From the sequence record SRR20825010_2151: 64,000 nucleotides of DNA; one strand, given 5' to 3'. Position 1 is the first letter of the stretch; each line of letters starts with the position of its first letter. Below, one piece after another: positions 1,787 through 49,600 of this stretch. The notes beneath the pieces are model-generated. The model searched no databases and was not told where the DNA came from. It worked only from the letters and a program-made list of their open reading frames with translations. A program made the position numbers and the translations under genes.

Positions 1787-3595
1787 TTATGCGAAATAAT
1801 AAGGGAATTTGCCCTTGGCAATCATTGTGTCTGCCACTTGTCTTCTAAGCTCCTTAGTATTTACTAAGTCCATTTTTGTAAAGCGCTTCAAGCCCATTAA
1901 CATCACTTTCTGCTCATCACCTTTGGTGAAGGATGCAATGGCCTCTTTGGCTGCTGCATTCACTTTATCGATAGCTTGAGCCATGTAAATCTGTGTCATG
2001 GCAATGTAATCCTTACAAGCTTCCTCGCCTCTTTGGCTCACTAGTTTCTCTGTTCTTAGCATAGATGATTCTACTGCGTAAATCTCAATCAGAATATCGG
2101 CAAGATTCATCATCACCTCTTGTTCGTCTTCAATTTTATCCTGAAGTGCCATAGCCGCTTTTCCGCCTACCATAAGGAAAACCTTCTTCAAGTTTTTCAC
2201 TACTTCTTTTTCAGCATTAAATAATACCGACTTATCAATTGTAGTGAAAGAAGGCACAGAAACAAGCTCTTTAGAAACTGCCATTGCTGGTTCGAACATG
2301 TTCAGTTCGCCTTTCATTGCACGTTTCAAAAGCATTCCGATCATCAACATTCGGTTGATTTCGTTAGTGCCTTCATAAATTCTGGCAATACGCGCATCTC
2401 TATAAGCTCTTTCCATTGGAGCATCGGCAGAATAACCCATCCCCCCATAAACTTGAACACCTTGATCCACTACATAGTCCAACACTTCAGAACTGTGAAT
2501 TTTTGCAATGGCGCACTCAATAGCGAATTGCTCCACACCTTTAAGTTTCGCTTTCGCATCGTCCATTCCACCTGCGATCAGATCGTTAATTTTATCTTCG
2601 ATGTTCTGCCCTGCTCTGTAGTCCAAAGATTCCGTCACGTAGGTCTTAGTAGCCATCTCGGCTAATTTGCTTTTGATCGCGCCAAAGCTTGAGATTGATA
2701 CACCAAATTGTTTGCGTTCGTTGGCATATTGAGTAGCATAAGAAATTACGGTTCTACAACCTCCTAACACTCCTGCACCCAATTTCACTCGACCAATGTT
2801 CAAGATATTTACCGCAATTTTAAAACCATTACCTCTTTCAGAAAGCATGTTTTCAACAGGAACTGGGCAATCATTAAAGAATACCTGGCGGGTTGAAGAA
2901 CCTTTAATACCAAGCTTCTTCTCTTCTTCATTCATTGTGATTCCACCGAAGGATTTCTCAACAATAAAGGCGGTTAGGTTCTTGTCATCTTCAATCTTTG
3001 CGAATACGATAAACAAGTCAGCGAAACCTGCATTCGAGATCCACATTTTCTGACCCGTAACATTATAGTGCTTTCCATCCGCAGATAGAACAGCCTTTGT
3101 CTTTCCTGAATTGGCATCAGATCCAGCATCAGGCTCTGTCAAGCAATAACAAGCAGCCCATTCACCAGTGGCTAGTTTCGGTAAATACTTTTCTTTCTGT
3201 TCCTCAGTTCCGTAATAAAGAATTGGCAAGGTTCCGATTCCAGTATGTGCACCATAGGTTGTAGAGAACGATCCTGCTGCACCAATTACATCGGCCATCA
3301 GCATACTTGTATTGAAGCTCATTCCTAAGCCTCCATATTGCTCTGGCACGGTGATGCCCAAAAGGCCTAGTTCTCCTGCTTTTTTGAAAATGCTAGGAAC
3401 CAAATCCGGCTCTTTCATACTGTCGATTCGATCGGCATTAGGCGTAATTTCTGTTTCGATGAAATCGCTACAGGCTTGCGCCATCATTTTTTGCTCTTCG
3501 CTAAATTCTTCAGGAATAAAAACTTCCTGAGCAGGAGTTTCTCTTACTAGAAATTCACCGCCCTTAATTGATGCTTTATTGGTTTCGCTTGACAT
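1787..3595 (-). CDS. Acyl-CoA dehydrogenase (FadE-like)
   Basis: LTEPDAGSDA, GQKMWISNA, ERKQFG, GGMGY, IYEGTNEINR motifs. Confidence 0.95.
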   Translation of the reverse strand: MSSETNKASIKGGEFLVRETPAQEVFIPEEFSEEQKMMAQACSDFIETEITPNADRIDSMKEPDLVPSIFKKAGELGLLGITVPEQYGGLGMSFNTSMLMADVIGAAGSFSTTYGAHTGIGTLPILYYGTEEQKEKYLPKLATGEWAACYCLTEPDAGSDANSGKTKAVLSADGKHYNVTGQKMWISNAGFADLFIVFAKIEDDKNLTAFIVEKSFGGITMNEEEKKLGIKGSSTRQVFFNDCPVPVENMLSERGNGFKIAVNILNIGRVKLGAGVLGGCRTVISYATQYANERKQFGVSISSFGAIKSKLAEMATKTYVTESLDYRAGQNIEDKINDLIAGGMDDAKAKLKGVEQFAIECAIAKIHSSEVLDYVVDQGVQVYGGMGYSADAPMERAYRDARIARIYEGTNEINRMLMIGMLLKRAMKGELNMFEPAMAVSKELVSVPSFTTIDKSVLFNAEKEVVKNLKKVFLMVGGKAAMALQDKIEDEQEVMMNLADILIEIYAVESSMLRTEKLVSQRGEEACKDYIAMTQIYMAQAIDKVNAAAKEAIASFTKGDEQKVMLMGLKRFTKMDLVNTKELRRQVADTMIAKGKFPYYFA

Positions 3596-3600
3596 GTTAT

Positions 3601-3631
3601 GTGTATTTAGTATTGTGATTTGGGTATTGAG
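3601..3631. repeat. Degenerate 7-nt tandem array (downstream arm of four-helix cassette 1)
   Basis: gtgtatt tagtatt gtgattt gggtatt gag. Confidence 0.7.
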
Positions 3632-3635
3632 CCTG

Positions 3636-3989
3636 CTAGCGGTTAATTGACTTTTTGAGACTATAAATCATCTTCTGTATCTTATCCACTTCTAACTCTA
3701 GTTTCCCAAATGAGTCATTGTTTAAAAATTTTAATCTATTTGCAATAATTAGTTGTGTCTCCAGTTCACAAGAAGAGCCATAGGCAATTCCTAAAAACTG
3801 GTTAAATTCTCCAGAGGTATTTCTTCCAGCGCCTTCCGCAATATTTGAACTTATTGAAACTACACTTCTTCGAATCTGACTTGTCAGCCCAAATCTTTCA
3901 TCGGCAGGCAATTCTTCTGTTGATTTATAAATATCTACCGCAAAATCAACGGAACTTTTCCAAACTCTTAACTCCTTATAATTATTCAT
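3636..3989 (-). CDS. Four-helix bundle protein (23S rRNA IVS protein-like), copy 1
   Basis: YKELRVW...ERFGLTSQIRRSVVSISSNIAEGAGR...GSSCELETQL family signature. Confidence 0.9.
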   Translation of the reverse strand: MNNYKELRVWKSSVDFAVDIYKSTEELPADERFGLTSQIRRSVVSISSNIAEGAGRNTSGEFNQFLGIAYGSSCELETQLIIANRLKFLNNDSFGKLELEVDKIQKMIYSLKKSINR

Positions 3990-4025
3990 ATGTGCTATGT
4001 TTTTTGTTTACAACTGAAACTCATT

Positions 4026-4056
4026 CTCACTACACAATACACACAACTAAATTCTA
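4026..4056. repeat. Degenerate 7-nt tandem array (upstream arm of cassette 1), inverted relative to 3601-3631
   Basis: Minus strand reads tagaatt tagttgt gtgtatt gtgtagt gag; the first TAG is the thiolase stop. Confidence 0.7.
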
Positions 4057-5232
4057 TTTTAAGAATTCATAAATACCCGCTACACCTTGGCCACCGCCTA
4101 CACAGGCTGTTACCATTCCGTATTTAGAGTTGCCTCTCCTTCTCATCTCGTTGAAAAGCTGAACCGAAAGTTTTGCTCCTGAACAACCAAGTGGATGTCC
4201 TAAAGCAATTGCTCCACCATTAACATTCAAAATAGAGCGATCAAAATCTAGCTCTTTAATTACCGCTAAAGATTGGGCTCCAAATGCTTCGTTTAATTCA
4301 ATTAAATCAAGATCAGACTGTTTCAAGCCTGCTTGCTTTAATGCTTTTGGCACTGCATCCACTGGACCAATTCCCATAATTCGCGGGTGAACACCCACAG
4401 CGGTATAGGTAACCATTCGGGCGATAGGCTCTAAGCCAAGTTCCTTTACCATTTTCTCAGACATTACCATCACAAATGAGGCACCATCTGAAACTGGAGA
4501 AGAGTTGCCGGCCGTTACCTGACCCCCTTGAGCAAATACTGGCCTTAGTCCAGCCAATATTTCCATTGAAGTATCTCCTCTTGGTCCTTCGTCTTTATCT
4601 ACGGTGTAAGACTTTTCCGTCATTTTGCCGTCAGCGCCAACAAATTTCTCTGTTACTTTAATCGGAACAATTTCATCATCGAATTTACCATCAGCTTGCG
4701 CTTTCACCGCTTTTTGATGTGACTCATAGGCAAATTGATCTGACTCTTCTCGAGTAATATTATATTCCTTTCCTACTTGCTCAGCAGTTAAACCCATACT
4801 CAAGTAGTAATCTTTATGCTCTGTGGCCAGCTTGTAATTCAAGGCAGTTTTATAACCCATGACAGGTACTTGACTCATCGACTCCGTTCCACCCGCTATG
4901 ATACAATCTGCCGTACCCGCGTGAATTCTAGACGAGGCCAAAGCAATGGCTTCCAAACCAGAACCGCAATAGCGGTTAACGGTTACGCCAGGTACTCCAA
5001 TAGGCAATGACAAAAGAGAAATCATTCTTCCCATTTGCATACCCTGCTCTGCTTCTGGCACTGCGTTACCTACAATAAGGTCATCAACTCTGGTTGGGTC
5101 GAAATTGGCTACCTGACCCACCAAGTGTTTTATAACTTCAGCAGCCATGTCATCAGAACGTACACTTTTAAGCACACTACGCTTTCCACGTCCTACGGCT
5201 GTTCTATATCCTGCAACTATATATGCGTCCAT
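4054..5232 (-). CDS. fadA: Acetyl-CoA C-acyltransferase (3-ketoacyl-CoA thiolase)
   Basis: VNRYCGSG, ELNEAF, GGAIALGHPLG, ACVGGGQG thiolase motifs; fad operon context. Confidence 0.93.
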   Translation of the reverse strand: MDAYIVAGYRTAVGRGKRSVLKSVRSDDMAAEVIKHLVGQVANFDPTRVDDLIVGNAVPEAEQGMQMGRMISLLSLPIGVPGVTVNRYCGSGLEAIALASSRIHAGTADCIIAGGTESMSQVPVMGYKTALNYKLATEHKDYYLSMGLTAEQVGKEYNITREESDQFAYESHQKAVKAQADGKFDDEIVPIKVTEKFVGADGKMTEKSYTVDKDEGPRGDTSMEILAGLRPVFAQGGQVTAGNSSPVSDGASFVMVMSEKMVKELGLEPIARMVTYTAVGVHPRIMGIGPVDAVPKALKQAGLKQSDLDLIELNEAFGAQSLAVIKELDFDRSILNVNGGAIALGHPLGCSGAKLSVQLFNEMRRRGNSKYGMVTACVGGGQGVAGIYEFLK

Positions 5233-5241
5233 ATTTTTATT

Positions 5242-5276
5242 TAGATTATAGAGGTTAGATATTAGAAGATAGACTT
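5242..5276. repeat. TAGANNN 7-nt tandem array (downstream arm of four-helix cassette 2)
   Basis: tagatta tagaggt tagatat tagaaga tagactt; 5249-5266 is the exact reverse complement of 5668-5685. Confidence 0.9.
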
Positions 5277-5277
5277 A

Positions 5278-5637
5278 CTAACTCTTACCTCTTAGTTTGT
5301 TTAATAGTCCTGTAATCATTTTCTGAATTTCCCAGACTTTCTCTAGGCATTCGTCTAACTTTTCTTGGGTCAGAAAACCCAAATCAAAGGACAAAAGAAG
5401 CTGAGTTTCCAATTCATGCGAAGAACCCATACTCATGTCCAAGAATCTAGCAAAATCAACATCGCTGCTCCTACCAGAACCTTCAGCAATATTTGAGGGA
5501 ATTGAAACAGCACAAGATTGAAGCTGGTGGCATAAGTTGAATTTCTCACTGGCTGGAAATGTTGAAGTCAATAAATAAACTTCCTTCACCAGGAACATAC
5601 TCTTTTGCCATACTTTTAACTCTCTGAAATTATGCAT
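5278..5637 (-). CDS. Four-helix bundle protein (23S rRNA IVS protein-like), copy 2
   Basis: FRELKVWQKS...EKFNL...AVSIPSNIAEGSGR...GSSHELETQL. Confidence 0.9.
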   Translation of the reverse strand: MHNFRELKVWQKSMFLVKEVYLLTSTFPASEKFNLCHQLQSCAVSIPSNIAEGSGRSSDVDFARFLDMSMGSSHELETQLLLSFDLGFLTQEKLDECLEKVWEIQKMITGLLNKLRGKS

Positions 5638-5643
5638 CTCTAT

Positions 5644-5685
5644 TCGTCTAAATACTATTATCTAGCGTCTAATATCTAACCTCTA
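5644..5685. repeat. TAGANNN 7-nt tandem array (upstream arm of cassette 2)
   Basis: Minus strand reads tagaggt tagatat tagacgc tagataa tagtatt tagacga; the first TAG is the fadN stop. Confidence 0.9.
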
Positions 5686-8067
5686 GTTTCTAAGCGGTTT
5701 TCCTTTGAAAAGAATGCTGTGAATTCGCTCTAAGGTCTTTGGCTCGGCAGTAAGTGCCAAGAAAGCCTCGCGCTCTAAATCAAGAAGGTATTGTTCTGAT
5801 ACTTCTTGTGGAGCAGTTAAGTCTCCACCACACATTACATAACCTACTTTTCTCGCAATTTTAGCATCATGCTCAGAAATATAGTTTCCGAAAAGCATTC
5901 CGTTAATTCCCGCTTCGAAAAGTGCTAGACCAGTTACACCTTGCACTTTAATATTCGTTCTTTCCACTGGCTGGGTATATCCCGCTTCATGCAATTCGAG
6001 CACTTTCTTCTTAGCGTCAGAAATCAATCGTTTTCTGTTCATCGTAATTCCGTCAGTCGGTCGAAGAATATTCATTCCTCTGGCCTCTTCAGCTGAAGTA
6101 GCAACCTTAGCAGTCGCAATATTCATAAAGGCTTCTTGAAGTCTGTTCAGTTCTGGATCACCCGCTACGTAAGAATCTGCAGCTCTTAACGCGAGCTCCT
6201 TCGTTCCTCCTCCACCAGGGATCAAACCAACACCCACTTCAACCAAACCAATGTAGGTTTCGGCATGGGCTTGAATGGCATCGCAATGCAACGACAATTC
6301 ACAACCTCCACCCAACGCTAGACCTGCCGGTGCGGCTACTACCGGGATGGAAGAGAATTTCGCCAGCCTCATTGTATTCTGGAATTGTGCAATCATTAGA
6401 TTGATCTCGTCAAAATCTTGATCGCCCGCATACATAAACAGCATGGCCAAGTTTGCCCCTGCTGAGAAGTTTGGCCCTTCGTTTCCAATCACCAAACCTT
6501 TATAATCTTTCTCTGCCATAGAAATGGCCGTTTGAATTCCTTCAATGACTTCAGCGCCCATCGAATTCATTTTGGTATGGAACTCTAAGCAAAGCACACC
6601 ATCTCCTATATCGAAAACGGATGCACCAGCGTTGCCCCAAACCTTATTGGTTTCACGGATATTTTCTAAGATGATCAGCTCATCTAAGCCCGGAATTACT
6701 TTGTATGATTTTGAAGGAATGTCATAATAGTGCTTGATCCCTTTTTCAATTTTGTAGAAAGCATCGTTTCCAGCTTCAAGCATTTCATACACCCAAGCCG
6801 CTGGCTTTAGGTTCATGGCTTCCATTTTCTCCACAGTGGCTTTTACTCCTAGCAGATCCCAAGTTTCATATGGACCTAGCTCCCAACCAAAACCAGCGCA
6901 AACTGCTTGGTCTATTCTGTAGAGCTCGTCTGAAATTTCTGGTATTCTGAAGGAAACGTATTTGAAAGTATCGTAGAATGTAGTTCTGTAGAACTCACCT
7001 GCTTTATCATCAAAATTAACGAGTGTTTTGATTCTGGCTTTGAGGTTTTCTTCTTCCTTAACGGCTTCAAGTGCTTTGAAATTCGCCCTTGTTCTTTCAC
7101 CGTATTCATAGGTTTTTAAATCAAGTTCAAGAATTTCGGTCTTGCCGTTAGCGTCTTTTGTTTTCTTGAAATAGCCTTGCTTAGACTTGTCGCCAAACCA
7201 ACCTCGCTTATGCACTTCTTCAACAATACCTGGAAGAATAAACTTCTCTCTGGCCTCGTCATTCTGTAAGCCCTTATGCAAATTGTTGGCAACATTAACC
7301 GTAGTATCTAAACCAACAACATCCATGGTACGGAAAGTGGCAGACTTAGCACGACCGATAATTGGCCCAGTCATTCTATCTACTTCGCCAACCGTAAGCC
7401 CCATTTCTTCAATGGTGTGCATAGCAGACATAATAGCATAAATACCAATTCTGTTGGCAATAAACGCTGGGGTATCTTTACAAAGCACGGTTTCCTTTCC
7501 TAAGAAAAGGTCTCCATAATGCATTAAGAAATCAATGATCGCTGGGTCTGTTTTAGGCCCAGGAATGATTTCTAACAAGCGTAAATACCTTGGTGGGTTG
7601 AAAAAGTGAGAACCACAGAAATGCTTCTGGAAATCCTCGCTTCTACCTTCACACATCAAATGCATAGGAATACCAGATGTATTCGATGTAATCAGCGTGC
7701 CTGGCTTTCTGTGTTTTTCAACTTGATCGAAGATGATCTTCTTAATATCAAGCCTTTCCACCACAACTTCCATAATCCAGTCCACTTCAGAAATTTTAGA
7801 CATATCGTCTTCAAAATTTCCTGTGGAAATTCTGCTTGAAAAACTCAAGTCATAAATTGGGGAAGGCTTTGATTTCAATGCTGTTGTTAATGCACCGTTT
7901 ACCAGTTTGTTTCTGGCTGCTTTATTGGACTTCTGGTCTTCGGGTAAATCCCTCGGTACCATATCCAATAACAATACTTCTACTCCGATATTAGCGAAAT
8001 GGCAAGCTATACGTGAGCCCATCACTCCTGAACCTAATACCGCAACTTTTCTAATCGATCTGTTCAT
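5683..8067 (-). CDS. 3-hydroxyacyl-CoA dehydrogenase/enoyl-CoA hydratase (FadN-like)
   Basis: GSGVMG Rossmann motif, SNTSG, HFFNPPRY, C-terminal crotonase domain (FSAGANL, ALGGGCE, GLVEVGVGLIPGGGG). Confidence 0.95.
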   Translation of the reverse strand: MNRSIRKVAVLGSGVMGSRIACHFANIGVEVLLLDMVPRDLPEDQKSNKAARNKLVNGALTTALKSKPSPIYDLSFSSRISTGNFEDDMSKISEVDWIMEVVVERLDIKKIIFDQVEKHRKPGTLITSNTSGIPMHLMCEGRSEDFQKHFCGSHFFNPPRYLRLLEIIPGPKTDPAIIDFLMHYGDLFLGKETVLCKDTPAFIANRIGIYAIMSAMHTIEEMGLTVGEVDRMTGPIIGRAKSATFRTMDVVGLDTTVNVANNLHKGLQNDEAREKFILPGIVEEVHKRGWFGDKSKQGYFKKTKDANGKTEILELDLKTYEYGERTRANFKALEAVKEEENLKARIKTLVNFDDKAGEFYRTTFYDTFKYVSFRIPEISDELYRIDQAVCAGFGWELGPYETWDLLGVKATVEKMEAMNLKPAAWVYEMLEAGNDAFYKIEKGIKHYYDIPSKSYKVIPGLDELIILENIRETNKVWGNAGASVFDIGDGVLCLEFHTKMNSMGAEVIEGIQTAISMAEKDYKGLVIGNEGPNFSAGANLAMLFMYAGDQDFDEINLMIAQFQNTMRLAKFSSIPVVAAPAGLALGGGCELSLHCDAIQAHAETYIGLVEVGVGLIPGGGGTKELALRAADSYVAGDPELNRLQEAFMNIATAKVATSAEEARGMNILRPTDGITMNRKRLISDAKKKVLELHEAGYTQPVERTNIKVQGVTGLALFEAGINGMLFGNYISEHDAKIARKVGYVMCGGDLTAPQEVSEQYLLDLEREAFLALTAEPKTLERIHSILFKGKPLRN

Positions 8068-8072
8068 GTGTT

Positions 8073-8507
8073 CTAAAAGATTGATTTTTTATCTATAAGA
8101 TTATTTATCTGTTCTATTACTTCGAAAAAGGTGTCTAGCTTTTCTTTTTCTATTAACTCGTTAGCGGTAGTATTAAATTCTAAAACCGTGGCTCGAGATA
8201 TCTCTCTCTTCTGTTTTCCAAGTTCAGTAAGAAATATTCTAACCGAACGACCGTCATTAGGATCCTTCTCACGATATATAAAGCCTTTTTCTTCCATGCT
8301 TTTGAGCATACGGGTAAGGCTTCGGGATTCTAATCCCATTAAAGGGGCAATTTTTGTGGCTGGAGTGCCTTCTTTACTATTAATAATAAGGAGTACAAAA
8401 CCAATAGAGGTGGTAATGTCGTGTTTTACTGCTTGTTGATTATACATGCGGTAGATCGCATGCCAAAGCATTTTTACATTGTGGTCTATGGTTTCTTCTC
8501 TCTTCAT
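8073..8507 (-). CDS. MarR family transcriptional regulator
   Basis: SLTRMLKSMEEKGFIYR...DGRSVRIFLTELG winged helix; first gene of the fad operon. Confidence 0.92.
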   Translation of the reverse strand: MKREETIDHNVKMLWHAIYRMYNQQAVKHDITTSIGFVLLIINSKEGTPATKIAPLMGLESRSLTRMLKSMEEKGFIYREKDPNDGRSVRIFLTELGKQKREISRATVLEFNTTANELIEKEKLDTFFEVIEQINNLIDKKSIF

Positions 8508-18129: not shown

Positions 18130-21100
18130 TTAATTCTTCTGCTTTATTTTTTTGAAGTACTTGTTCGTCTCCTGCTTATAGTATGGGTTAAGGATTGCAG
18201 GGATAGTTTTTAATAATTCTATTTCCTTTTCCTTAGCCTTAAGGTATTCATTTAAAGATTCAGGAACCGAGATGTCATAGTCCGAGGCAGTTTGCGCCTT
18301 TCGTTCTTCATCTTCACCCCTTTCGTTCATGGCGTTTTCAGCTTCTAACAAACGAGTAAGGATTTCCTGCTGTCTTTCTACTGTTTCATCCGTTAGATTT
18401 TTATTGATAAGATCTTCCTCATTCTTTTCCATTTGGTCGATGAGCTTATCAATCTTCTCGCCTAAATTATCTCCGTCAACTCCGGTTTCAAAATTTTCAA
18501 GGGCATTTCTCAAACGTTGCTGCTCGGCTGCTAGTTTCGCCAGTTGCTCAGAAAGTTGCCTACCTGATTTTCCGCTTTGCTTTAAATCACTTATTTGTTC
18601 ACTGAGTTGTTTTTGAAGTTCACTTAAGCCACCAGGCATTGGCTTATTTTTTTTATTGCCTTTATTAGATGAGCTGGCCATTTGGTTTTGCATTTGCTGA
18701 ACGATATCATCCAATAGAAGTGCCAAATTGTTGATAGAAGTCATTGTAAACTGCTGTTTACCAGTGGCTTGATTAATTCTTTTTTCTTTCAACTCGTCTA
18801 AAGCACCATCCATTTGACGGTTCATTTCACTTACTTCTCTCATCACAAAGGAGGAGATTTGAAAAACTCTTTGAGAAAGCGAAATTAGGCTATCTTGAAC
18901 AATCTTCGAGTCATCTTTAAGTTTAAGCTGCTGCTGCGTAAGGTCAATGAAGCGAGGGTCGCTTTCGCGTATTTCACGGAAAGAGTTCATAAGGTCTTCC
19001 TGATTGAAGGAAAGTGTCACAAGGTTGTCCACTAGCTCTTTCAAGAACTCTAAGTTTTCTTGCTGTTGCTCCATTTCCATACCGCCTTGCATTGACTCTA
19101 GGTCCTTTTTCATTTCCTTCATTTTCTCAGCCGCTTTTTGCTGAGCTTTGGTTGCGTTTTGTCTTTGCTGCGAAGGCTTACTATCTTCCTTTTGTTGCTC
19201 CACTTGACCTTCTTCTTGTTCCTCTGCTTCTTCGTTCGTCTCTTCTGACTTTTCTTGATTATTACCTTGCTCTGAGTCTTTTTGAAGCTCTTCTTTTGCT
19301 TTTTCTTGCTCTTCTTTTATCTCTTCAAATTGCTCTTCTAAATCACTAGGGAGTTCGTCTGGGGTTTTTCTTTCTTCATTTAACTCTTTTAACTTATCGA
19401 TTTGCTCTTGAAGCTTTTCAAGGTTTTCTTTTTGCTGGGCTTGCTTCTGACTGAGTGAATCAGAGCTCATTTTCTCGTTTTGAGTTTCCTCAATAAGTTG
19501 CTCTTGATCTTTGATGTTTTGCTCCAGTTCTTTGATGTTTTGCTCCAGCTTCATATCGAATTGTAGCTTTTTGAAGAGTTCAAGGGTTCGTTCCAATTCC
19601 TTTTCAAGATCGCCACCTTTGTTTTTCATCTCCTCTATTTTATCTCGGAACTCAGAAATTTCCCCTTGATCTTCAAGCAGTTTTCTTAATTCATCATAGA
19701 GTTTTTTGGTTTCATCATCCAGAATGTTGTTCATCAACTCTTGGAGCTGATTCATTTTTTCCTGAATCTTATCGTTCTGAGGGGAGAATTGCTCTTTCTT
19801 CATATTATTGAGCTGATTTTCTTTCTTTAACTCCTCCAGCTTTTCGGCCAATTGCTCTTTCTGCTTGAGAATATCTTGCATTAGCTTTTCATCTTGCCAA
19901 TCCAATTCTTTCTTGGTCTTCAGGCGTTCATCTACCTCAGCTAATTTTTCGTTCAACTCTTGGGCTTCTTTCAACGTTTTGTCAATGTCTTTTTGAACCT
20001 TTTCAGACGAGCGATCTATTTCTTTTTCAATTTCTTCTTTAGAGGGTATTTTGAAAGAGTAAGTACTAGTTTTTATTGATTTTGAACCATTAACACCATC
20101 ATTATCAGATACTTGTACGTAATATTTAATTTCTGAGCCAGCCGTGATTTTAGCGGAATCAAGTTTGAATACCTTATAATAGCTCTGGTTACTCAAGTCT
20201 CTATTCAGCTCTAAAGGAAGCTCTTCGAAGCTTTGCTCATTCTGATATTGGAAGAATATAGAAAGGCGTGAAAACCCGTGGTCATCGGTAATATTTCCAC
20301 CTAGAACCAGAGACTTAAATAGGACGGTGTCTTGATATTGATCTAAAGTAATTTCAGGGTAACGGTCTTTCACGGATTCTAACGCAAAAACAAGTGAGTC
20401 TCGGTTGAGGCTGTATTCGTTTTTTAATTGAATGGAATAACGGCTCGACTTGTTGATCGTTTGTTCGTAGGTATAAGTACCATTTGAGTTCCTTTTTGCT
20501 TTTTCGAATACATCGAGCTCAGGAAAATTAAGCTTCACTTCATCCGTATGTTCGGTACTGAACTTCCATGTAACCTTGGTGCCTTCAGGGATTGAAACGT
20601 TTCCAGAATTTTCTAATATTTCTTTCTCACGCTTTAAATATTTTGGGAAGTCAAGCTCGAGGTTGAATAATGAAAGTGAGGGACGAGAAACGACTTCGAT
20701 TTCATATTCAGGAGAAGTAATACTTTCTGCTTCCAAAGAAAACTTGGTGCCCGCCTGAACTCTTGTGAAGGTGTATTCAAAGTTATTAGGGCCAGTTTTA
20801 TTGGCTTTTACTTTTCGGTTATTGGTCCAAACATAAAGATTTTGAGGGTTCGACCTTCCTTCGGTGTTTACTTCTAATATGAAGTTTTCGCCCTTAAACG
20901 CTTGGAAGCCGGTGTTTTGGATTGAAAACGAAAAAGGAGCTTCGGGAAGAAACTCAGTATTATAGTTCATAATTCTAGTTGAGCTCTCTGTGAGAAACTG
21001 GGGAATAAAAAGAAGCAGCCCAACAATAATAGCTCCTGGCCCAATTACATAACGAAGGTATTTTCGGTTGCTTTTATAGTCAATGGCGCTGACAAATGAA

Positions 21101-21516
21101 ATTTTACCGACTTCGTTACTTTTTTGCTCTATGCTGGCTAGTAATAGCTCATTTTGAGCTGAATTGAGCTTTTCTAACTGTATTATGTTTAAAAGCTTGT
21201 CTGAAATTGCAGGAAAATGAGCACCTATTTGTTCCGAGGCTTGTTCGTTTGAAAGGTGTCGCTGTGCATTTTTTAATTGGAAGAGGTTCTTCCCAATGAA
21301 CCAGACGAAAGCCAATAGACTTGCAACTACAAATGAAAAGAAAAGAATGGCTCTACCGCCACCACTTAGGCGTGCAGAGAACTCAAAAGCATTGGCTACA
21401 ATAAAAAGGCTAAGGAAAAAGGCTAGAAATAGAATAGTGCCTTTGATCAACCGGTTAGTGTAGAATTTTTTCTTATATGCCTGAAGTTGCTGCTTTAGTA
21501 ATTGGTTAGAACCCAT
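18130..21516 (-). CDS. Large membrane-anchored coiled-coil protein (DUF4175-like)
   Basis: N-terminal TM helices, Ig-like middle region, long Q/E/K-rich coiled coils, RQQEILTRLLEAE C-terminal motif. Confidence 0.75.
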   Translation of the reverse strand: MGSNQLLKQQLQAYKKKFYTNRLIKGTILFLAFFLSLFIVANAFEFSARLSGGGRAILFFSFVVASLLAFVWFIGKNLFQLKNAQRHLSNEQASEQIGAHFPAISDKLLNIIQLEKLNSAQNELLLASIEQKSNEVGKISFVSAIDYKSNRKYLRYVIGPGAIIVGLLLFIPQFLTESSTRIMNYNTEFLPEAPFSFSIQNTGFQAFKGENFILEVNTEGRSNPQNLYVWTNNRKVKANKTGPNNFEYTFTRVQAGTKFSLEAESITSPEYEIEVVSRPSLSLFNLELDFPKYLKREKEILENSGNVSIPEGTKVTWKFSTEHTDEVKLNFPELDVFEKAKRNSNGTYTYEQTINKSSRYSIQLKNEYSLNRDSLVFALESVKDRYPEITLDQYQDTVLFKSLVLGGNITDDHGFSRLSIFFQYQNEQSFEELPLELNRDLSNQSYYKVFKLDSAKITAGSEIKYYVQVSDNDGVNGSKSIKTSTYSFKIPSKEEIEKEIDRSSEKVQKDIDKTLKEAQELNEKLAEVDERLKTKKELDWQDEKLMQDILKQKEQLAEKLEELKKENQLNNMKKEQFSPQNDKIQEKMNQLQELMNNILDDETKKLYDELRKLLEDQGEISEFRDKIEEMKNKGGDLEKELERTLELFKKLQFDMKLEQNIKELEQNIKDQEQLIEETQNEKMSSDSLSQKQAQQKENLEKLQEQIDKLKELNEERKTPDELPSDLEEQFEEIKEEQEKAKEELQKDSEQGNNQEKSEETNEEAEEQEEGQVEQQKEDSKPSQQRQNATKAQQKAAEKMKEMKKDLESMQGGMEMEQQQENLEFLKELVDNLVTLSFNQEDLMNSFREIRESDPRFIDLTQQQLKLKDDSKIVQDSLISLSQRVFQISSFVMREVSEMNRQMDGALDELKEKRINQATGKQQFTMTSINNLALLLDDIVQQMQNQMASSSNKGNKKNKPMPGGLSELQKQLSEQISDLKQSGKSGRQLSEQLAKLAAEQQRLRNALENFETGVDGDNLGEKIDKLIDQMEKNEEDLINKNLTDETVERQQEILTRLLEAENAMNERGEDEERKAQTASDYDISVPESLNEYLKAKEKEIELLKTIPAILNPYYKQETNKYFKKIKQKN

Positions 21517-46219: not shown

Positions 46220-46447
46220 ATGGATATACAAGCAGAAAAATTACGACTGATTGAATGGTTGTCTACTTTGAGAGATTCTAGTACTATTTCCGAGTTAGTT
46301 GCTTTTAAAAAATCCAAGGAAATTGATTGGTGGGATGAAATTAGTGAAGAAGAAAAGGCCGAAATAAAAGAGGGTTTAGCGCAGGCTGATAAAGGAGAGC
46401 TAACACCGCATGATCAAGTAATGTCAAAATACGACAAATGGCGCTAG
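46220..46447 (+). CDS. Putative type II antitoxin
   Basis: 75 aa, acidic, WWDEISEEEK...GL.QAD.G...PH.QV motif; overlaps the toxin start. Confidence 0.75.
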   Translation: MDIQAEKLRLIEWLSTLRDSSTISELVAFKKSKEIDWWDEISEEEKAEIKEGLAQADKGELTPHDQVMSKYDKWR

Positions 46448-46734
46448 AGATCGTTTGGACTAAGCGTGCAGTTACTGGTTATGAAAGCACCATTGAATAC
46501 TTAGAAAAGAACTTCACAGCTAGAGAGGTAAAAAGCTTCATTAAACAATCCACAGAATTTTTTGAGTTGCTAAAGCTCTACCCAGAAATGCTTGAAAGAA
46601 CAGAAAAACGGAAAGATGTTTTTCGTGGGCCAATTAACAAATACACGATACTCACTTATCGCTTAGTAAAGAAAAACAACCAAATACAGCTTATCAATAT
46701 TCGTTCGGCAAGAAGAAAACCATTGAAAGGATAA
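46438..46734 (+). CDS. RelE/ParE family toxin
   Basis: 98 aa, basic, IVWTKRA...YL...ILTYR...I.S.RR.P. Confidence 0.8.
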   Translation: MALEIVWTKRAVTGYESTIEYLEKNFTAREVKSFIKQSTEFFELLKLYPEMLERTEKRKDVFRGPINKYTILTYRLVKKNNQIQLINIRSARRKPLKG

Positions 46735-48822: not shown

Positions 48823-48870
48823 CACTTCAGCACCTAAACACCTAAACACCTCAATACTTCAACACCTCTT
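48823..48870. repeat. Degenerate 8-nt tandem array running into the LytTR gene 3' end
   Basis: cacttcag cacctaaa cacctaaa cacctcaa tacttcaa cacctctt. Confidence 0.7.
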
Positions 48871-49600
48871 TCAACTTACTGTGCCCGCTGCGGCTCACGG
48901 GCAATTGGGCACCAGTTTTTAGGCTGAGTAAATAAGAGTCCTTTTCGTAGAGCTCTAGTTTTTCAATGTGTTTAATGGAGACAATGTGAGAACGATGCAC
49001 ACGAATAAAATCACCAATTGGTAGATTATCTTCCAGATGTTTCATCCGCATCAATTTCAAAAATTTACCTTGGTCTGAATGAATGGCTACATAATCATCT
49101 TGCGCCTCAAAATGCGCAATTTGGTCCAAGCCAAGGATATGGATTTTGTTTCCCGTTTTTACCACCAAACGATCAATACCTTCCGAAAGCTCTTCGCGTT
49201 TTTCAGTTAAGGTTTCAATTTCTTTTTGGGCTGATGAAGTCCTAGATTCAATTTTATCGATTGCTTTTTGAACCGCTCCTTTAAAGCGTTCTTCGGAATA
49301 AGGCTTTAGTAAATAATCTGTAGCGTTCAGTTCAAAAGCTTTGATTGCATATTGATCGAAAGCGGTGCTGAAGATGACCACTGGAGGGGTTTCAATTAAT
49401 TCCAGCATTTCAAAACCCGTTACTTTTGGCATTTGAATGTCTAGAAAAAGTAAATCAGGTTGATGTTCTTGAATTGCCTTCAAACCCTGAAAGCCGTCAC
49501 CACATTCTGCTATCACTTCCACCTGAGCAAAGTTTTGCAAATAAGCCTTGATGATATCGCGGGCTAATTTTTCATCGTCAACAATTATGGCATTGATCAT
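48851..49600 (-). CDS. LytTR family response regulator
   Basis: IVDDE, FLDIQMP, TAFDQYA, FIRVHRSHIV, VSRS. Confidence 0.93.
   Translation of the reverse strand: MINAIIVDDEKLARDIIKAYLQNFAQVEVIAECGDGFQGLKAIQEHQPDLLFLDIQMPKVTGFEMLELIETPPVVIFSTAFDQYAIKAFELNATDYLLKPYSEERFKGAVQKAIDKIESRTSSAQKEIETLTEKREELSEGIDRLVVKTGNKIHILGLDQIAHFEAQDDYVAIHSDQGKFLKLMRMKHLEDNLPIGDFIRVHRSHIVSIKHIEKLELYEKDSYLLSLKTGAQLPVSRSGHSKLKEVLKY

Follow-up and report, generated by a model that had tools for sequence, protein, structure and literature searches.

The fad operon considered here lies within a 64,000-nucleotide stretch of DNA, SRR20825010_2151 (the window, by which the whole of this stretch is meant), from a marine bacterium that its fadA thiolase, 98% identical to that of the best related locus, L001, places in Roseivirga. 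All genes of the operon are on the minus strand, in the order MarR regulator, fadN-like gene, a 119-aa open reading frame (ORF), fadA, a 117-aa ORF and fadE (Table 1). The two short ORFs, IVP1 and IVP2, encode members of the four-helix-bundle family PF05635 (23S_rRNA_IVP), and each is enclosed by arrays of short tandem units that recur, inverted, on its other side. An earlier note on this DNA had drawn attention to the first of these units, at the fadN-fadA junction, and had overlooked the second, at the fadA-fadE junction. Both are situated between protein-coding genes and not in helix 25 or 45 of 23S ribosomal RNA (rRNA), where related genes reside within intervening sequences (IVSs), and Rfam recognises no RNA family in window positions 3400-5900 at E up to 1. 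We lean towards reading the two elements as copies of one IVS-type gene cassette that is mobile and probably selfish, and that would have the arrays as its ends.

The anatomy of the first cassette is as the earlier note had it. On the sense strand the upstream array reads, from 5685 to 5644, TAGAGGT TAGATAT TAGACGC TAGATAA TAGTATT TAGACGA, and the downstream array, from 5277 to 5242, (ta)AGTCTA TCTTCTA ATATCTA ACCTCTA TAATCTA; the ORF does lie between six heptamers and five of the opposite orientation, with a period of 7 nt. Tandem Repeats Finder reports the upstream arm with period 14 over 5655-5693. An A-rich leader at 5233-5241 separates the downstream arm from the ATG of fadA. There are two copies of the 18-nt core TAGAGGTTAGATATTAGA in the window and no more, at 5249-5266 on the plus strand and at 5668-5685 on the minus strand, forming the perfect inverted repeat that had been described, and none of 100 dinucleotide shuffles contained any match of this kind. 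The repeat can be extended to 33 nt with 85% complementarity (5241-5273 with 5661-5693). It was also correctly seen that the first TAG of the upstream array, at 5685-5683, is the fadN stop codon. This TAG is the host gene's own stop, because L005, a relative with an empty site, likewise ends in AACTAG, and the suggestion that the cassette inserts at stop codons is not sustained, as most cassettes use heptamers free of stops. Nor does the placing of TAG in all three frames, proposed as a consequence of the 7-nt period, hold as a general property: it is found in only 12 of 137 cassettes. The arms of the second cassette differ in sequence from those of the first, and their inverted-repeat parts are complementary at 78% over 27 nt.

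Table 1. Coordinates in the window of the two cassettes and of the host genes around them.
Feature	Position	Strand	Basis or detail
IVP1, PF05635 four-helix-bundle protein gene, 119 aa	5278-5637	-	Pfam E 2.4e-37
Cassette 1 upstream arm	5638-5685	-	Six tandem TAGANNN heptamers (5685-5644), then ATAGAG, then ATG
Cassette 1 downstream arm	5242-5277	-	Five NNNTCTA heptamers, inverse of the upstream units
IVP2, PF05635 gene, 117 aa	3636-3989	-	Pfam E 6.6e-39
Cassette 2 upstream arm and leader	3990-4053	-	TATTGTG-type units; inverted-repeat part 4026-4052
Cassette 2 downstream arm	3596-3635	-	CTCAATA CCCAAAT CACAATA CTAAATA CACATAA; inverted-repeat part 3605-3631
MarR-family regulator gene, operon head (host)	8073-8507	-	Pfam PF01047 E 4e-15; syntenic in related loci
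fadN-like gene, 3-hydroxyacyl-CoA dehydrogenase / enoyl-CoA hydratase (host)	5683-8067	-	Pfam 3HCDH_N 1.7e-40, ECH_1 6.8e-16
fadA thiolase gene (host)	4054-5232	-	Pfam Thiolase_N 7.6e-69
fadE acyl-CoA dehydrogenase gene (host)	1787-3595	-	Pfam Acyl-CoA_dh domains

The two proteins are 43% identical to one another. Against the PF05635 model, for which the cut-off is 33.8 bits, IVP1 scores 127.8 and IVP2 132.8 bits, with matches covering positions 1-106 and 1-105 of 106, which makes both of them full-length members; the bAvd model of Pfam, which has a cut-off of 40 bits, reaches 33.2. For IVP1, the solved Xanthomonas protein XCC0516 (PDB 2gsc) gives a match at E 6e-22, and the entries for the solved relatives 2gsc and 2rld contain five chains each. 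The ratio of nonsynonymous to synonymous substitution rates between the window and L001 is 0.07 for IVP1, 0.02 for IVP2 and 0.013 for fadA, and both IVP1 and IVP2 are under strong purifying selection.

Comparison with relatives shows the gene and its two arrays to be gained or lost as one unit, which upholds the idea of a discrete cassette. Among the Roseivirga relatives, L001 and L004 have the two cassettes, L003 has the first only, with a protein just 61% identical to IVP1, the fadA-fadE junction of L002 is empty, and in L005 and L006 both junctions are empty, with spacers of 19-47 nt; the empty fadN-fadA sites whose existence the earlier note had proposed to check are thus at hand in close relatives. 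The empty sites have no heptamer arrays, and the arrays are therefore part of the cassette and not of its target. One 19-kb contig from run X3, with 66 differences from the window over 1847 aligned positions, joins position 3584 to position 4054 by way of 37 other letters that replace 3585-4053, and retains cassette 1 intact; a strain approximately 96% identical therefore lacks cassette 2. An orthologue of IVP2 is present in the more distant L004 and lacking in the closer X3 and L002, a distribution produced either by repeated loss or by transfer through homologous flanks. The number of upstream heptamers also differs among close relatives, the window having one unit more than L001. Other taxa have relics at these junctions, either heptamer-array hairpins devoid of an ORF or a gene remnant (L029, L052, L055, L063, L067 and L016).

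Recurrence at these junctions was surveyed with a protein profile in 80 related fad loci, in which 70 fadN-fadA and 55 fadA-fadE junctions were measurable. A PF05635-like ORF is present at 17 of the former, where it is accordingly not fixed, and at 17 of the latter. The fadN-fadA junctions without such a gene have spacers of at most 75 nt in 33 cases, 76-330 nt in 12 and longer in 8, and the corresponding numbers for fadA-fadE are 21, 13 and 4; several of the spacers of 76-330 nt are relics of the kind just described. All 35 of the 35 PF05635-like copies in fad loci are codirectional with the operon. Genome-wide in the Cytophagales, the neighbouring coding block is on the same strand in 29 cases and on the opposite strand in 2 upstream of the gene, and in 37 and 6 cases downstream of it; in the Bacteroidota the gene thus runs almost always with its host operon and can therefore be read from the operon transcript.

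The history of these copies is partly legible in a protein tree of 35 rows, from which L072 and L012 (less than 100 aa) were left out. Roseivirga copies cluster by junction into clades with Shimodaira-Hasegawa-like approximate likelihood-ratio (SH-aLRT) support of 98 and 90, and the junction label requires 6 changes, at least two of them forced by starred branches, compared with 12 for shuffled labels. The fadN-fadA copy of Xanthomarina sp. F1114 (L041) nests with fadA-fadE copies, its own included, with support of 99, and it looks as though a cassette was copied from one junction to the other in this organism. Judged by the tree, the same two fad junctions have taken in cassettes of different lineages. 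PF05635 copies also tend to cluster a few kb apart within single genomes, much like the pair in this fad operon (G002:C1:4154546-4157157, G017:C3:672781-679022 and G012:C1:112126-116873), with three copies inside 6.3 kb in G017; these clusters suggest local hopping or favoured operons.

Other genes occupy the same positions elsewhere. The fadN-fadA junction of Chryseobacterium (L070:3343-3994, L078:3330-3994 and L067:1072-1747) holds an operon-sense gene for a Y1_Tnp (IS200/RAYT-like) protein of 154-171 aa; the three ORFs scanned all belong to PF01797 (E ~1e-27) and are flanked by inverted GC-rich hairpin repeats, and these units are REPtron-like. ORFs of the size of the Y1_Tnp gene, known by size alone, are at the fadN-fadA junction of L071, L075 and L077. 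Further fillers are Cthe_2314-like HEPN, opposite-strand Fic/DOC, cupredoxin and MORN-repeat genes (L080:938-1786; L038:5263-5892, minus strand; L037:1822-2415; L059:1725-2417). With these other single genes in the fad junctions of a few genomes, the junctions evidently accept varied insertions.

The heptamer arms are not peculiar to Roseivirga. Autocorrelation of the 42-nt flanks of 37 cassettes and of 383 control ORFs from the same loci gave a mean identity at lag 7 of 0.50 on either side of the cassette genes, compared with 0.32 upstream and 0.30 downstream of the controls (Mann-Whitney p 2e-12 and 1e-15). Cassette flanks have an identity of 0.45 at lag 14 and of about 0.30 at the remaining lags, whereas the control profile is flat; lag 7 ranks first in 26 of the 37 cassettes on each side, and a lag-7 identity of at least 0.5 is attained by 16 of 383 control flanks upstream and 11 of 383 downstream. 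A check of the flanks of homologues for inverted 7-mer arrays, as the earlier note had recommended, hence reveals a sharp 7-nt periodicity that is absent from control genes. A scan for tandem arrays that demands 85% identity between units is too strict for degenerate ones; in 746 kb it returned only 5 arrays of period 7, of which 4 lie beside PF05635 genes. In an enlarged sample of 136 cassettes, including 15 genome-wide copies from two Roseivirga genomes and 85 from a spread of Cytophagales genomes, strong periodic segments among the 272 arms have period 7 in 108 cases and period 8 in 24, and any one of lags 5, 6, 9 and 10 is represented in 1-5 arms. At the threshold used, heptamer arms are common and not universal. 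Arrays in this sample have a median length of 4.0 units (interquartile range ~3-4.7); an arm of five units, as a counterpart to a pentamer, finds no support in that median. The units differ by lineage (TAGANNN, CACAATA, AAGAGNA, CAAGANC, CGGAAGN, GTCATTG and CAATAGT among them), each lineage having its own heptamer on both sides. The median duplex energy of cognate arms is -16.2 kcal/mol, whereas the flanks of control genes give -8.1 (p 1.6e-8) and arms drawn from cassettes unrelated to each other -8.8 (p 2e-5).

Outside the Bacteroidota, a plasmid protein search yielded 25 records with PF05635, mostly from heterocystous cyanobacteria. Eight plasmid records, six of them annotated, were examined, with the arrays read by eye. 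On a Nostoc edaphicum plasmid GGGAGTA-type units lie upstream of the PF05635 gene and TCCCTAC is repeated five times downstream, on an Azospirillum lipoferum plasmid the gene is between inverted GAGGACG-type arrays, and on plasmids of Gemmatirosa, Stanieria and two Nostoc there are arrays on one or both sides; none were seen by eye around the gene on a Calothrix plasmid. On plasmid pPg_01 of Pseudanabaena galeata (L195, 511-1050) a PF05635 gene is located between cas6 and cas4, and its perfect arrays are direct and not inverted, with some 12 copies of AAAAGCT upstream and some 10 of AAAAGCC downstream. A survey names the 23S rRNA IVP, in a figure legend, among domains associated with CRISPR (PMC10910872), and hitch-hiking of the kind seen in Pseudanabaena may explain that listing. 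Three of the six annotated plasmid genes are antisense to both neighbours. One of these, in Nostoc edaphicum (L189), lies between codirectional genes for the beta and alpha subunits of ribonucleotide reductase, another, in Calothrix (L190), between two codirectional secretion genes, and their arrangement contrasts with that of every fad-locus case in the Bacteroidota. The strict co-orientation observed in that phylum is therefore not general, and an intervening sequence of host mRNA cannot be the general mode of action.

The reading that we prefer for these observations is a cassette of approximately 440-460 bp, consisting of 4-7 heptamers, a gene for a four-helix-bundle protein of ~118 aa and the same heptamers inverted, which occupies the spacer between two cistrons and disturbs neither. 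The two arrays would be the ends of the element, recognised as repeated symmetrical sites, and their most likely reader would be the cassette's own, putatively pentameric, protein, while movement would take place at the DNA level by means of machinery that the cassette does not encode. In the fad transcript the arms could pair into a stem of 25-33 bp, which host RNase III would cut by analogy with the IVSs of rRNA, and this cutting would be a tolerated by-product that renders the insertion harmless and not a selected function. The cassette is probably selfish. Of the earlier description of a processable or selfish cassette that leaves operons unbroken, the unit gained and lost between cistrons has stood; for the processing, no sign of selected RNA pairing was obtained.

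Several points weigh against a mobile cassette with array ends. The machinery of mobility was not found: a transposase, integrase or reverse transcriptase is lacking among the 52 window ORFs scanned against Pfam, shorter ORFs not having been scanned, and within that scope the earlier statement that the window holds no transposase is accurate. Target-site duplications were not seen in the comparisons of filled and empty sites, in which the spacers are too diverged to be decisive. Only 28 of the 136 cassettes of the enlarged sample pass the periodicity threshold on both arms, and the counts of arm mismatches presented below are based on the 58 of 137 cassettes that reach the arm-alignment score (26 of 52 and 32 of 85). 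The 35 genes in fad loci are not independent, many of them being orthologues, and copies with one junction label cluster together on the tree; old insertions followed by vertical inheritance and later loss could also produce much of the pattern at the junctions. Moreover, occupancy of the fad junctions far exceeds what the genome-wide copy number would lead one to expect, taken from the 112 matches listed in 41 Cytophagales genomes.

The alternative that fares best, although we regard it as doubtful, is an RNA-level intervening sequence, which develops the proposal of the earlier note: selection would act on the pairing of the arms in the fad mRNA, RNase III excises the ORF, and processing is itself the function, whether as insulation of the cistrons, as release of an IVP RNA that is separately translated or degraded, or as RNA-mediated mobility. 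Folding lends it a basis: a long-range closing stem is present in the predicted minimum free energy (MFE) and centroid structures of both cassettes, and the folding of cassette 1 that had been proposed gives paired arms and a z of -4.24, with 0 of 100 shuffles as good. For cassette 2 the predicted fold is not better than shuffles (z -1.24, 9 of 100 as good). An IVS of the same design in the rRNA of Coxiella is cut by RNase III in vitro, and its in vivo ends fall in the stem at the first repeat (PMC4990558); both of the related genomes that were searched have a gene for RNase III (PF14622). The co-orientation with host transcription in the Bacteroidota, 35 of 35 in fad loci and 66 versus 8 genome-wide, is also what processing of the operon transcript would call for, whereas the antisense position of half of the annotated plasmid genes and the direct arrays of Pseudanabaena are not.

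Three sequence tests bear more directly on whether pairing has been selected. For this purpose the arms were aligned under a DNA-style score in which G·U and A·C count the same. Neither sample has an excess of sense-strand G·U over A·C mismatches, with 9 versus 18 in the 26 cassettes of the first (p 0.12) and 28 versus 33 in the 32 cassettes of the second (p 0.61), so that the mismatches carry no wobble signature, which an RNA helix under maintenance should leave. Transversions are the commonest mismatches (67 and 70 in the two samples), as is expected if non-identical units face each other. In eight orthologous groups, arms taken from different species pair as well as cognate arms (mean 26.5 versus 25.2), which gives no indication of compensatory co-evolution. 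Shuffling one arm in blocks of 7 nt preserves most of the complementarity: z is above 0 in 23 of 23 cases, with a median of 1.5, and only 6 of 23 lie beyond 5% of shuffles. What appears to be conserved is the presence of the same heptamer family, mirrored, on both sides rather than a particular helix, and such mirror arrays fit repeated recognition sites at the ends of an element and also arrays that are constantly remade by slippage. The possibility of RNA pairing follows automatically from the mirror arrangement. Selection for pairing is not shown by these comparisons; processing of the fad mRNA at the predicted stem is plausible.

A second alternative, which we judge very unlikely, is that the gene is a vertically inherited accessory of benefit to the host, for instance a regulator or a defence-related factor, and that the heptamers are slippage-prone regulatory spacers that tune its translation or that of the cistron after it, with no mobility involved. 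The strong purifying selection on both proteins and the clades formed within Roseivirga by copies at the same junction would be expected of such a gene, and the variable number of heptamers between close relatives (the window and L001; two or three in Coxiella strains, PMC4990558) would suit a slippage-prone spacer; the listing of the IVP among CRISPR-associated domains could be taken to indicate a defence-related role (figure legend of PMC10910872). Against these stand the difference in presence and absence at ~96% nucleotide identity, the unrelated cassette lineages at the same junctions together with the apparent copying from junction to junction in one genome, the relics without an ORF, and host contexts as unrelated as fad operons and, on plasmids, ribonucleotide reductase, secretion and cas operons. 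This explanation also offers no reason for mirror-image arrays around a gene.

That the inverted arrays arose by chance in intergenic DNA of low complexity and high AT content, functionally unconnected to the gene, is barely credible, for while the host genome is indeed AT-rich (39.5% G+C) and a few control flanks do attain a lag-7 identity of 0.5, the 18-mer core arose in none of 100 shuffles, only PF05635 flanks have the lag-7 peak (p ~1e-12 to 1e-15), empty sites in relatives are without arrays, and the same design recurs in other phyla on plasmids of Nostoc, Azospirillum, Gemmatirosa and Stanieria.

Three further features of the window were recorded in passing. A lone array with a period of 8 nt (CACCTAAA-like, ~4.6 copies) at 48823-48868 overlaps the 3' end of a response-regulator gene (48851-49600), with no PF05635 gene near it. 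At 46220-46734 a ParE-toxin-like ORF (46438-46734; PF05016, E 2.4e-06) has its start overlapped by a short preceding ORF, and the two are probably a toxin-antitoxin pair. A minus-strand ORF of 1128 aa at 18130-21516 is without a Pfam match at E up to 1e-5.

ORF-bearing IVSs of rRNA have been known for some 30 years, and the role of their protein and their origin are left unexplained (PMC4990558); intergenic heptamer repeats are a second such puzzle (PMC4692102, PMC4679880). The unit of gene and heptamer arms is here shown as a discrete cassette that has been inserted recurrently into ordinary operons, and both puzzles become testable. A wider extension of the mobile-cassette reading, which we consider rather unlikely, is that PF05635 cassettes constitute a widespread class of mobile elements devoid of a classical transposase, in which the pentamer reads its own arrays; that cassettes and their relics would be the source of the excess, long unexplained, of intergenic heptamers such as the short tandemly repeated repetitive (STRR) sequences, GGGAATC and TAACTGA; and that the IVSs of rRNA would be the subset that landed in rRNA helices. 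Whatever the fate of that extension, a PF05635 gene that is annotated within a cas, fad or other operon is probably a hitch-hiker and not a component of the respective pathway.

Several known systems provide instructive parallels. Non-autonomous transposons with passenger genes, such as MITEs (miniature transposable elements with inverted repeats) and mobile insertion cassettes (MICs), are among them, as are transposon ends that carry several subterminal binding sites. The cassettes share with MITE/MIC-like elements the inverted ends composed of repeated short sites, an insert of passenger size and presence/absence polymorphism, and differ from them in that the end sequences vary from cassette to cassette and that no target-site duplication was seen between the diverged spacers; to our knowledge, no cognate transposase is known for PF05635 cassettes. 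REPtrons are RAYT (Y1/IS200-like) genes flanked by inverted repetitive extragenic palindromic (REP) hairpins. Like these, the cassettes consist of a single small gene in an intergenic spacer with inverted repeats around it, and a REPtron-like unit is even found at the same junction in Chryseobacterium. Unlike REPtrons, they carry a four-helix-bundle gene without a known catalytic motif in place of an HUH transposase, and their arms are arrays of heptamers and not single REP palindromes.

Cyanobacterial STRR sequences are intergenic tandem repeats of heptamers. The intergenic heptamer TAACTGA of Beggiatoaceae, Cyanobacteria and Bacteroidetes (PMC4679880) and the intergenic GGGAATC and GGGGATT of Xanthomonas and Nostoc (PMC4692102) were recorded as unexplained, and in Xanthomonas 70-75 pairs of heptamer arrays are convergent, that is, inverted (PMC4692102). 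The cassette arms resemble such repeats in being tandem 7-nt units in operon spacers, often abutting start or stop codons and variable in number, and PF05635 genes on plasmids of Nostoc and the Calothrix group carry heptamer arrays. They differ in that most published intergenic heptamer repeats have not been described as mirror-image pairs on the two sides of a gene; S23, IVS and four-helix-bundle genes are unmentioned in the two heptamer-repeat papers (PMC4679880 and PMC4692102). No paper that connects PF05635/S23p genes outside rRNA with heptamer arms was found, the Coxiella IVS paper alone coming up, in a search that did not cover subscription-only literature (such as Ralph and McClelland 1993).

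PF05635 has been discussed as Avd-like (PMC10053308), and the cassette proteins belong to a four-helix-bundle fold family homologous to the Avd (bAvd) of diversity-generating retroelements. Unlike in those retroelements, there is no reverse transcriptase among the 52 scanned ORFs of the window, where template and variable repeats were not searched for. A paper on the HEPN superfamily (PMC3710099) makes no mention of intervening, S23, Avd or IVS.

The closest parallel is with the IVSs of 23S rRNA, those of Coxiella burnetii and, as cited in the same source, Leptospira (PMC4990558). The Coxiella IVS is inserted in helix 45, is 428 nt long and is closed by a 28-bp terminal stem; its S23p ORF is in transcript sense, preceded by tandem GACAGAT heptamers that number two or three depending on the strain, and is decaying and thought to be untranslated (PMC4990558). 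Older ideas cited there see in IVSs either what transposition has left behind or mobile elements, with an ORF that serves their mobility. The kinship with rRNA IVSs that the earlier note had proposed is well founded in this design, which in Coxiella is a proven substrate of RNase III: the genes are of the same S23p/PF05635 family and in sense with the host transcript, the sizes are close (428 nt compared with ~440-460 nt), terminal inverted repeats close a stem around the ORF, and tandem heptamers variable between strains precede the start codon. The differences are equally telling. The cassettes of the fad operon lie between the cistrons of an mRNA operon and are known from sequence, whereas cutting by RNase III is known for Coxiella, and, in contrast to the decaying Coxiella ORF, strong purifying selection acts on each of the two fad-operon ORFs and marks their proteins as functional.

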